Assembly: GCA_041576165.1 (NCBI GenBank)
Contig: JBFGLM010000042.1
Location: 1 to 40,227 of the forward strand
Length of the DNA: 40,227 bases
Direction of reading: 5' to 3'
Source: Acidimicrobiia bacterium
Lineage (GTDB): Bacteria; Actinomycetota; Acidimicrobiia; Spongiisociales; Spongiisociaceae
Shown one piece after another: positions 6,925-10,418 of this stretch (position 1 is its first letter; each line of letters starts with the position of its first letter). Made by a program: the position numbers and the translations under genes. Below the pieces are notes generated by a model. That model did no database searches. It saw nothing but the letters and a program-made list of their open reading frames with translations, and was not told the origin of the DNA.

Positions 6925-8061
6925 TCACGGCGCAGGCAACGGCTCCGGGGCCGGGGGGCCGGTGTAGGCCGAGTCGGGTCGGATGATCCGGTTAGCGGCG
7001 ATTTGCTCTCGGATGTGGGCCGTCCATCCGATACTGCGGCTGATCGCAAAGAGCGCCGGGTACAAGACCGGTTCAATCCCCAGCGCGTACAGAACGACTC
7101 CGGCGTAGTACTCGACGTTGGTACGGATATCGCGGCCCGGCCGGTGGCGGGCCAGTGCATCCAGCAGGATCGGTTCCGTCGCCACCGCCATATCCACGAA
7201 CGGCCCGCCGATCGATCGGGCTACCCCTTTGAGCATTTCCGAGCGCGGGTCTGTGGTGGCATAGACACGGTGGCCGAAGCCCATTATCACCTCGCCCCTG
7301 GCCAGGGTTGCCTCGGCGTAGGCAGGCGCGTTATCGACGGAGCCGATCTCATTGAGCATGTCCACCACGAGGCTGGGAGCACCGCCGTGCAGCGGTCCAG
7401 ACAGGGCCCCGACTCCGGCAACGAGCGCTGCCCCCAGATCGGCTCCGGTGGACGCCACTACCCGGGCCGCGAATGTCGAGGCGTTGAACCCGTGGTCAAC
7501 CGTCAGTATCAGGTACTGCTCGAGCGCCCGGGCCCGAGCCGGGTCCGGCAGATCGCCTTCCAGCATCCACAGGAAGTTCGCGACTGCTGCCACGTCGGAC
7601 CGCGGTGTAACGACAGACAAACCCTGTCTCGCCCGCCACATCGTGGCCACGATGGTGGGCATGACCGCCGCCAACCGGTAGCCGAGGTTTTCGGCGTCGT
7701 CCCGATAGAGCCAGCTCGACATCCCGTCGGCCTGGGCTAAGAGGGATGCCCCGGTCCGGGTCCAGACGAGCGCAGGCGCGTCGGGTGAGCCCAGGCGGGC
7801 CACCACGCCCAGCGCTTCAATCACATCAGGGGCCAGCACCCGGAGTCGGCTGGTCAGTCGTGCGAACTCGCGGGACTGCTCGCGGGTGGGCAGCGAGCCG
7901 TGGTGTAACAGATACCAGACGTCCTCGAGCGTTCGCGTTCTGGCCAGGTCGACCGCCGAGTACTGGCGGTAATGAAAAAAGCCTTCATCGCCACGGACTC
8001 CACCGAGGGCCGTCTCGGCGACCACAACGCCGGCCAAACCGGCCGGGAGCGTTTGCGTCAT
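6925..8061 (-). CDS. Citrate synthase / 2-methylcitrate synthase family (actinobacterial CitA-like)
   Basis: GLAGVV, DHGFNASTFAAR, GPLHGGA, MGFGHRVY..DPR and NVEYY motifs. GAGGTG SD before ATG 8061. Confidence 0.92.
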   Translation of the reverse strand: MTQTLPAGLAGVVVAETALGGVRGDEGFFHYRQYSAVDLARTRTLEDVWYLLHHGSLPTREQSREFARLTSRLRVLAPDVIEALGVVARLGSPDAPALVWTRTGASLLAQADGMSSWLYRDDAENLGYRLAAVMPTIVATMWRARQGLSVVTPRSDVAAVANFLWMLEGDLPDPARARALEQYLILTVDHGFNASTFAARVVASTGADLGAALVAGVGALSGPLHGGAPSLVVDMLNEIGSVDNAPAYAEATLARGEVIMGFGHRVYATTDPRSEMLKGVARSIGGPFVDMAVATEPILLDALARHRPGRDIRTNVEYYAGVVLYALGIEPVLYPALFAISRSIGWTAHIREQIAANRIIRPDSAYTGPPAPEPLPAP

Positions 8062-8099
8062 GTACACCTCTTCGAGGCCATCCTGCCACGATATCGACA

Positions 8100-8131
8100 G
8101 TTGATCAATGTTGATCAATATTCGATAGTAT
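8100..8131. promoter_or_regulatory. Tandem palindromic operator candidate plus -10 element
   Basis: GTTGATCAAT occurs twice (8100-8119), each with the TTGATCAA palindrome. TAGTAT at 8126-8131 lies 6 nt before GTG 8138. Confidence 0.65.
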
Positions 8132-8137
8132 TGGCGG

Positions 8138-9328
8138 GTGGACAGATCCGACTACCTGTCATCAGCCGCCGCCGCACAGCGGCTCGGGATCAAGACAGAA
8201 ACTCTGTACGCCTATGTCAGCCGGGGTCTGATCACCCCGATACGCCGGCATGGCGGCAAGGGCAGCTGGTTCGACCCCGACGACGTGAGGCGGCTCGCAC
8301 GTCGACCCCGGGCCAGCAGCCGGCAACATGCCACGGTCATCGAATCCGCCATCACGCTCATCGACGGCGGGGAGTACTACTACCGGGGCCGCCGGGCCCT
8401 GGAAATGGCCGACGAGACCACCTTCGAGGGTGTGGCGGAATGGCTGTGGGACGCGAAGCCCGCACCATGGACGGCAGACCAAGGCTGGGCGGATGTGGCT
8501 CGCTCTGCCCTGGCGCTCGCCCGCCCCGGCGCGCCGGTACACGACCGTCTGCGGTTGGCAGCGGCGGCGATCGGGGCGGTTGACCCGGTCGGCGCCGGAG
8601 TCAGTCGCGATGCAGCAATCGCGACGGCCCGCCGGTTGATTCCGTCGATCGCCGCAGCGTGTTGCCCTGATCAGTCTCCTCCGACCGTGACGAGTGCCGC
8701 CTGGCGAGCAGTGGCGCCGTCGGCCGCCCCGCCTGCGGCGCTCCTCGACAGGGTGCTCGTGGTCGTGGCCGATCACGGCCTGGCGGCTTCCACGATCGCC
8801 GCTCGCACCGCGGCAGCGTATGGGGCCGGGATTCATGCTGTGATCGGGGCGGCACTTGGTGTGTTCAGCGGGGATCGGCATGGGGCTGCGTCCGTACGAG
8901 CGGAGCAGATGATCAGAGCGGCCGATGCCAGGGGTGCTGCGGCTGCCATCTCGGCTGAGCTGGCCGAGCGGGGCAACGTTCCCGGGCTGGGCCATCCACT
9001 GTATCCGAACGGCGACCCACGTGCTCGGTACCTGTTGGGAATGTTGCGCCAGCCCGCCCAGACGGGCGAGGTAGCCGGCGACCCGGCCGTGGTTGACACC
9101 GTTGGCGCCGTCGAGCAGCTGGTTGCGTCCAGGCGGCTCCCGCCACCGAACCTCGACTTCGCACTCGGAGCGCTCTCGGTTGCGTACGACCTGCGACCCG
9201 GCAGTGGCGAGTTCTTGTTTGCGCTCGGCCGGATGGCGGGGTGGGTCGCCCACGGATTGGAAGCGGCAGCCAGCCCGCCCTCCCGACCCCAAGCCGGCTA
9301 CACGGGCGCCCGACCCGTGGGCCGCTGA
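8138..9328 (+). CDS. HTH (MerR/excisionase-like)-citrate synthase-like fusion, probable regulator
   Basis: N-terminal LSSAAAAQRLGIKTETLYAYVSRGLI HTH. C-terminal citrate synthase motifs DHGLAAST, RHG, GLGHPLY..GDPR and PNLDFA. Confidence 0.88.
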   Translation: MDRSDYLSSAAAAQRLGIKTETLYAYVSRGLITPIRRHGGKGSWFDPDDVRRLARRPRASSRQHATVIESAITLIDGGEYYYRGRRALEMADETTFEGVAEWLWDAKPAPWTADQGWADVARSALALARPGAPVHDRLRLAAAAIGAVDPVGAGVSRDAAIATARRLIPSIAAACCPDQSPPTVTSAAWRAVAPSAAPPAALLDRVLVVVADHGLAASTIAARTAAAYGAGIHAVIGAALGVFSGDRHGAASVRAEQMIRAADARGAAAAISAELAERGNVPGLGHPLYPNGDPRARYLLGMLRQPAQTGEVAGDPAVVDTVGAVEQLVASRRLPPPNLDFALGALSVAYDLRPGSGEFLFALGRMAGWVAHGLEAAASPPSRPQAGYTGARPVGR

Positions 9329-9785: not shown

Positions 9786-10418
9786 GTGGACGACCAGCAA
9801 CTACGGGCCCGGATCTACTCGTTCTTCGCCGAGCACGGGACCGCGCCGTCACACCGAGAACTCGAGTTGTGGGCTGGCGGTGCCGAGCCGGCCCAAGCCG
9901 CCCTGCACCGGCTACACGAAGCGCATGCCCTGGTGCTCGAGCCGGGCGGTGGTGACATCGGGAAGGCGCTGCCGTTCTCTGCCCGGCCCACCGATCACGT
10001 CGTTCGCAGCATGGACCGCCAGTGGTGGGCCAACTGCGCGTGGGACGCCTTGGCCATTCCCGTGACCGTGGGTGTCGACGCATCGATCGAGGCGCCCTGG
10101 ATGGATGACGGCACCCCGGTGGGACTCGCCGTCAAGGGTGGGAAGCTCTCGAGCACCGACGGTTTCGTTCATTTCACGATCCCGGCTCGACACTGGTGGG
10201 ACGACATCGCCGAGACATGACGCACAATCCGCTTCCTCCGGTCGGAGGAGCACCAGCCCGTGGTTGGAGAGGCAGTGCCGCTCGGCGCAATGTGGCCGCT
10301 GACGGTCGCCTGGTACGCCGACCGCCTCGACCCCGACTTCAAGCCGAGATCCCCGCATGATTATCAGCAAGTGCTGTCGTCGGTCGGGCTCCGCGGCGAC
10401 TTCTGGCAGCTCGGTTGA
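9786..10418 (+). CDS. MerB (alkylmercury lyase)-like protein, predicted selenoprotein (in-frame UGA 10218-10220 = Sec145, 210 aa)
   Basis: N-terminal HTH-like region, LPFSARPTDHVV and WANCAWDAL (MerB Cys-x-x-Asp). The frame continues past the TGA as U-RTIRFLRSEEH...AWYADRLDPDFKPR...GLRGDFWQLG to TGA 10416-10418. A SECIS-like hairpin follows the UGA. Confidence 0.85.
10231..10251 (+). promoter_or_regulatory. Bacterial SECIS element candidate
   Basis: GCTTCCTCC-GGTC-GGAGGAGC forms an 8-bp stem with a bulged U and a GGUC apical loop. It starts 10 nt after the UGA, with the loop G 19 nt downstream, like the E. coli fdhF SECIS. Confidence 0.8.

Follow-up and report, generated by a model that had tools for sequence, protein, structure and literature searches.

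The window, a stretch of 40,227 nucleotides of Acidimicrobiia DNA, carries at 9786-10418 on the forward strand a single gene that opens with GTG, is interrupted at codon 145 by an in-frame TGA (10218-10220) and ends with a TGA at 10416-10418. Around it lie two citrate-synthase-type genes, acpS, glmS, glmM, rpsI, rplM and truA. The two citrate-synthase-family genes (6925-8118, reverse strand, and 8138-9328, forward strand) lie side by side and are divergently oriented, with matches to PF00285 of 347 and 156 bits, respectively. The features of the gene at 9786-10418 are as follows:

9786..10418, forward strand: predicted MerB-like selenoprotein gene, complete, with 210 codons plus a stop and Sec as codon 145
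9786..9788, forward strand: probable GTG start codon; the N-terminus MDDQQLR resembles the orthologues' MDDWELR, MDDVQFR and MDDLELR
10035..10037, forward strand: codon for Cys84 (corresponding to MerB Cys96), invariant in 57/57 sequences of the family alignment and aligned with the C of 'CalD' in the E. coli MerB chains
10044..10046, forward strand: codon for Asp87 (corresponding to MerB Asp99), invariant in the same 57-sequence alignment and aligned with the D of 'CalD' in MerB
10218..10220, forward strand: in-frame UGA, predicted to be read as Sec145 (corresponding to MerB Cys159); TGA in 11/11 and 79/80 relatives, Cys in 64/150 representatives
10231..10251, forward strand: putative SECIS hairpin, with a 5' arm at 10231-10239 that includes a bulged U, a GGUC loop at 10240-10243 and a 3' arm at 10244-10251
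10416..10418, forward strand: predicted true stop, TGA; the orthologue frames end near the same point

After the TGA at 10218-10220 the frame stays open for 65 further codons, as the sequence-only reading had claimed, and reading through gives 210 residues in total; the peptide strings quoted in that reading (WWDDIAET, RTIRFLRSEEH, WYADRLDPDFKPR, GLRGDFWQLG and WANCAWD) are all present in the translation. Residues 1-209 of the window protein are matched by orthologues. The GTG at 9786-9788 is probably the start codon, judging from the N-terminal resemblance given above; an alternative upstream start, GTG 9627, was rejected because it would overlap acpS on the opposite strand. The frames of all 11 same-order orthologues end no more than five codons from the end of their alignment to the window protein, and those of 80 further relatives end 64-92 codons past the Sec codon, with the exception of locus L081, which runs off its contig. 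A hairpin of the conserved type described below was sought after the TGA at 10416-10418 and none was found.

That standard annotation would truncate the gene had been foreseen, and this is how it appears in the protein collections. The predicted protein of the window gene (P0002) is 144 aa long, and the 120 best homologues listed by a word-indexed protein search all cover just 62-69% of the read-through protein, stopping at the UGA; one of them is RefSeq WP_133869697.1, a 144-aa 'organomercurial lyase' from the cultured Ilumatobacter fluminis. When 1.84 billion cluster representatives were searched with a profile, 4767 matched at E ≤ 0.001, with 396 at E ≤ 1e-30. Among the best 150 of these 4767, 73 end just before the Sec column, every one of them with the other two sites kept as Cys and Asp. 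At the Sec column itself, 64 have Cys (27 of the C-D-C type and 28 of the C-C-C type), as does MerB itself (Cys159), two have W, and 11 have another residue or a gap.

Each of ten orthologues from other families of the same order, at 33-47% identity, has exactly one TGA, and the TGA column is identical in 11/11 same-order sequences, the window included. A scan of species-representative genomes gave at least 574 relatives among the 600 pattern matches listed; in the best 80 of these relatives the Sec column holds TGA in 79 and TAG in one. These 80 come from at least six phyla and include Acidimicrobiia, Gaiellales, Thermoleophilia, other Actinomycetota, Gemmatimonadota, Acidobacteriota, Planctomycetota and Chloroflexota. 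Of 301 genomes sampled evenly across the phylum, 38 have the family (E ≤ 1e-20), 27 with one TGA, two with two and nine with none; when the unpublished genomes G230, G078 and G294 are left aside, the one-TGA count is 24/35. The relatives that were checked have the TGA together with the hairpin, and not TGC or TGT without it.

Two departures from this pattern were noted. The relative with TAG is Blastococcus jejuensis (locus L096, 4433-4435, NZ_BAAAVV010000003.1), whose hairpin and downstream frame are intact and whose genome has SelA; the gene may have been inactivated recently, or the TAG may be a sequencing error. In G075 and G122, two TGA codons lie within the match to the family profile, and the extra one may encode another Sec, mark a broken copy or be an artefact of how far the match extends.

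Mismatch frequencies at codon positions 1, 2 and 3 are 0.37, 0.35 and 0.54 upstream of the UGA and 0.38, 0.35 and 0.52 downstream, and the median NG86 dN/dS is 0.42 upstream and 0.49 downstream; coding constraint thus persists past the UGA. A pseudogene, in which a Cys codon had mutated to TGA and the DNA downstream was decaying intergenic sequence, would fit the behaviour of gene callers, which stop at the TGA, and the one relative with TAG at the site. It fits neither a TGA held at one column in 11/11 and 79/80 relatives from several phyla nor a codon-position pattern and dN/dS that are alike on the two sides of the UGA, and it is further opposed by the conserved, covarying hairpin and by the confident modelling of the C-terminal 65 residues inside the fold, both described below. 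We regard this explanation as already refuted by the comparative data and its probability as negligible.

The hairpin downstream of the UGA had been described as having a GGUC loop and a bulged U and as starting 10 nt after the UGA, and we reproduce it as such: GCUUCCUCC-GGUC-GGAGGAGC at 10231-10251 has a single bulged U, its first base lies 10 nt past the UGA, and the UGA-to-loop spacing is 19 nt, with the loop at 10240-10243. Folded alone it has an MFE of -12.8 kcal/mol. The bacterial SECIS model, as given in the accessible text of PMC13188914, has a loop of 3-9 nt with G in the first two loop positions, a stem of 4-16 bp, a distance of 16-37 nt from the UGA and an MFE ≤ -7.5. With a 4-nt loop starting GG, an 8-bp stem, 19-nt spacing and -12.8 kcal/mol, the window hairpin lies within the ranges stated there, and 81/91 hairpins of the family have an MFE ≤ -7.5 kcal/mol. 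The folding energy of the 66-nt stretch is, when set against shuffles, unremarkable for G+C-rich DNA (z = -0.11; 91/200 shuffles are at least as stable) and was given no weight as evidence, so that the case for the hairpin has to be made by comparing genomes.

That comparison was made on a gap-free alignment of 91 sequences. In the 9-pair helix, 81.6% of the cells are paired, versus 43-58% with the partner shifted 1-3 columns along the alignment; both sides have changed in 8/9 pairs, and 0/500 shuffles reached the observed pairing. The 11-sequence set gives the same covariation picture. The outermost two pairs of the stem fail to form in most of the family (49/87 and 70/87), which leaves only about 7 bp supported. 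The loop is GGTC in 88/91. Third codon positions are 0.91-0.99 conserved in the hairpin, versus 0.54-0.63 in the four codons before it.

The protein sequence encoded by the hairpin varies with the residue at the Sec column. R152, S153 and E154, whose codons fall in the loop and the 3' arm, are each present in 89/90 UGA forms, whereas the Cys forms have them in 17/63, 31/63 and 25/63, respectively, a contrast that is somewhat inflated by the greater overall divergence of the Cys-form set. Because R-S-E is kept in the UGA forms and not in the Cys forms, the constraint accompanies the UGA and is exerted on the RNA. At position 151 the UGA forms have Phe in 71/90 and Leu in the other 19, and the Cys forms have Phe in 55/63. 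A search of the hairpin region against Rfam matched no family, giving just two chance matches with E-values of 2 and 6.2.

The genome bin comprises 5.1 Mb in 161 contigs and is 96.5% complete and 7.5% contaminated. A search of it for selA, selB, selC and selD, suggested beforehand as a check on the selenoprotein reading, found all four: tRNA-Sec is encoded twice (anticodon TCA; contigs C1 and C145), as is selA (contigs C24 and C100), and each selA is adjoined by selB. The selD gene (G000:C1:171385-172317, reverse strand, locus L013) has one in-frame TGA, in the motif ...HGAGUACKLG..., followed by a hairpin with a GGUC tip, and is itself a predicted selenoprotein of the same genome. Identity between the two SelA proteins is only 56%, and the tRNA-Sec genes are unlike each other in the arms; in a bin with 7.5% contamination, these two divergent sets of Sec machinery could reflect two organisms or two systems. 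SelA is present in 59/61 genomes of the order (57/59 without the unpublished G032 and G043), and since it is so nearly universal its co-occurrence with the gene is not discriminating and was set aside as support. In G039, a genome of the same order that is 98% complete and has a UGA orthologue, no SelA match was found.

Read-through could also occur without Sec, by a near-cognate Trp or Cys tRNA or through reassignment of UGA, and W does stand at the column in two database proteins, P0123 and P0128. These are full-length proteins in which the TGA has evidently been translated by some pipeline under a code with TGA as Trp. The window gene itself, like many of its relatives, ends in TGA (10416-10418 in the window), and UGA is therefore a stop in these genomes; the homologues show Cys at the column and never a conserved Trp, the SECIS-type hairpin is conserved in UGA forms only, and the Sec machinery in the genome is complete. 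We consider read-through without Sec highly improbable and favour decoding of the UGA as selenocysteine.

The read-through protein matches the Pfam MerB family (PF03243; gathering threshold 27) with 78.2 bits over residues 64-156, and the protein cut at the TGA with 63.3 bits over residues 64-140, the match to the profile growing from position 80 to position 96 on read-through; the last 65 residues alone matched no Pfam family. The alignment with MerB2 (5c17) spans the UGA ('aeTCrtirflrseeh' versus 'ggTCkqihyfssveh'). With a profile of 57 family members, the UGA column corresponds to the first C of 'sfCC' (Cys159) in E. coli MerB 3fn8, and NCaWD is aligned to MerB 'CalD' (Cys96, Asp99). An AlphaFold2 model built on the 57-member alignment has a mean pLDDT of 97.1 and a pTM of 0.92, with no low-confidence segments, and a Foldseek search of the PDB gave 11 matches at E ≤ 0.001, all of them MerB or MerB2, over 192-213 aligned columns. 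Given the confidence of the full-length model and these matches, the C-terminal 65 residues are predicted to be an integral part of the MerB fold; the 65 downstream codons are thus conserved, remain under coding constraint and, by the model, belong to that fold. The active site would consist of Cys84, Asp87 and Sec145, replacing Cys96, Asp99 and Cys159 of MerB, with Sec as a chemical analogue of Cys at the third site, and the alignment with the MerB chains bears out the earlier assignment of WANCAWD to Cys96 and Asp99 and of the UGA to Cys159.

These results also weigh on the reading of the UGA as a true stop, which would leave a functional 144-residue N-terminal product, with the downstream frame either untranslated or translated on its own, for instance from GTG 10260. 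A 52-aa ORF does begin at GTG 10260, and the database entries are all about 143 aa long; the truncated product, however, would have neither the third ligand of the active site nor three of the secondary-structure elements in the MerB core, conservation is unbroken through the UGA and the next 14 codons, ahead of any internal start, and the Cys forms are single full-length proteins. We give a true stop very little weight. The comparative data support instead the recoding of the UGA with help from the downstream hairpin, so that a protein of 210 residues with the MerB fold and a Cys/Asp/Sec site results, as the sequence-only reading had proposed; the refuting conditions set out in that reading were all examined, and each outcome favoured it.

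Sec and Cys forms are intermixed on a FastTree phylogeny of 162 rows, in which ten changes of the Sec label are implied and the starred branches force at least four; as a quick tree with one distant outgroup, it does not settle the number or direction of the Sec/Cys changes. The window protein falls within a clade of ten rows, made up of Acidimicrobiia Sec forms, that has full support. The Cys-form members of the subfamily (P0122, P0124, P0136 and others) have the same length as the window protein and match the profile end to end (1-217); some of them keep WxNCxWD, and they carry Cys in place of the Sec of the window protein. Conservation of R-S-E is lacking in them, which argues that the Cys forms are without a SECIS element.

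One MerB-like organometallic lyase has been described as a selenoprotein. According to the accessible text of Haft and Gwadz (bioRxiv, 10.1101/2022.07.06.499078), this protein, SaoL, belongs to strict anaerobes (Firmicutes, spirochaetes and deltaproteobacteria), has a C-U motif whose Sec corresponds to MerB Cys159, is the marker of an SAO locus of nine genes and is likewise truncated in databases. As far as that text describes SaoL, the window protein resembles it in its MerB fold, its match to PF03243, the predicted Sec at the Cys159 site and the retention of Cys and Asp elsewhere. The interpretation as a MerB-like Sec enzyme holds for this gene; the principle is not new, SaoL having been published with Sec at the same position, but the present clade appears to be. 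The two differ in several respects. Against the SaoL model NF040728 the window protein scores 27.2 bits, over residues 34-124 only, with a cut-off of 140; its motif is T-U rather than C-U, with Thr before Sec in 86/90 relatives; it is encoded among housekeeping genes rather than in an SAO locus, with a common neighbour in at most 16/91 loci; and members of its family come from Acidimicrobiia, Gaiellales, Thermoleophilia, Gemmatimonadota, Acidobacteriota, Planctomycetota and Chloroflexota. Membership in SaoL was rejected on the score, the T-U motif, the lack of an SAO locus in the neighbourhood and the different phyla.

With canonical MerB from E. coli plasmid R831b (3f0o, 3f0p, 3fn8) and with MerB2 (5c17) the window protein shares the fold (Foldseek E 1e-8 to 5e-6, TM 0.49-0.66) and the active-site columns (Cys96, Asp99 and Cys159), but its third ligand is predicted to be Sec and not Cys, and the structure-based identity is 18-23%. 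Its scores against the equivalog models for canonical MerB, NF033555 and NF009710, are 31.2 bits against a cut-off of 200 and 32 against 193, and no NCBIfam model exceeds its cut-off for the window protein. The canonical protein is encoded in a mer operon; none is present around the window gene. No MerA exceeds the cut-off in the 96.5% complete genome (best 304.2 versus 454.45 bits). Given the housekeeping neighbours and the lack of MerA in the genome, the gene lies outside a classical mer operon, and identity with canonical mer-operon MerB was rejected on these grounds together with the NCBIfam scores. The gene stands alone, outside any classical mer resistance operon. Over the 91 loci, a given neighbour family occurs at 16 at most; the only recurrent ones, purN/purH-type genes at 13-16 Gaiellaceae-like loci and an ABC ATPase at 7 loci, were rejected as functional partners, the first as lineage synteny and the second as a member of a very large family.

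The literature on MerB-type selenoproteins yielded only SaoL, and supplementary catalogues (e.g. those of BSepDB and deep-Sep) may list the present family. The accessible main texts of deep-Sep (PMC12013277) and BSepDB (PMC13326102) make no mention of MerB, mercury or lyase, SaoL is the sole MerB-type entry in the accessible tables of the reviews PMC9312934 and PMC13188914, and a look-up in the Actinomarina preprint gave no further MerB-type selenoprotein. There thus appears to be, from the sequence comparisons, a second, stand-alone and widespread Sec-bearing branch of MerB besides SaoL.

We are highly confident that the window gene is a stand-alone selenoprotein gene, in which hairpin-aided recoding of the UGA gives a 210-residue protein of MerB fold with Cys84, Asp87 and Sec145, most likely a carbon-metal lyase. 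In MerB the metal is held by Cys thiolates, an Asp serves as proton donor, and the carbon-metal bond is cleaved. For the window gene, the hairpin at 10231-10251 would recruit SelB carrying Sec-tRNA(Sec) during translation of the mRNA, and the UGA at 10218-10220 would then be read as selenocysteine instead of stop, yielding the 210-residue protein. Judged from homology alone, the thiolate of Cys84 and the selenolate of Sec145 would hold a soft metal, and Asp87 would donate a proton for protonolytic cleavage of a carbon-metal bond. Protonolytic carbon-metal cleavage, with an organomercurial or another organometallic compound as substrate, is the most likely activity by analogy with MerB.

More speculatively, the T-U-type family might be a large, unrecognised group of carbon-metal lyases that stand alone, depend on selenium and work without a mer operon, in aerobic bacteria of soil and water (Acidimicrobiia, Gaiellales, Gemmatimonadota, Acidobacteriota, Chloroflexota and Planctomycetota). 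Such enzymes might either carry out a methylmercury demethylation that merB surveys have missed, the genes being represented there by 143-residue stumps, or act on some other organometallic or organo-metalloid substrate that needs a selenolate. We offer this proposal tentatively and think it rather less probable than not.

For annotation, the selenoprotein reading would mean that in hundreds of genomes this gene is cut to two thirds of its length, with the loss of one active-site ligand, and surveys of merB based on predicted proteins would miscount or misjudge such genes. For selenium biology it would add a second lineage of MerB-type selenoproteins, in phyla and habitats far from the strict anaerobes of SaoL, and the intermixing of Sec and Cys forms on the tree makes the family naturally suited to asking what is gained by having Sec at a metal site. 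An Hg-Se bond at the active site, if formed, would raise the mechanistic question of how the product is released, to which the absence of MerA from the genome adds.

Two further observations concern relatives with an ordinary Cys. The C-C-C subgroup of the Cys forms (28/64; e.g. P0130, P0134 and P0145), in which Cys replaces the catalytic Asp, makes up most of one clade on the tree. The bin of the window also contains a second MerB homologue, a 225-aa protein encoded on a short contig (G000:C84, locus L016, 310-987, reverse strand); it is of the ordinary Cys type (YAWCAWD ... GFCHKVLFF) and matches PF03243 with 88.2 bits.
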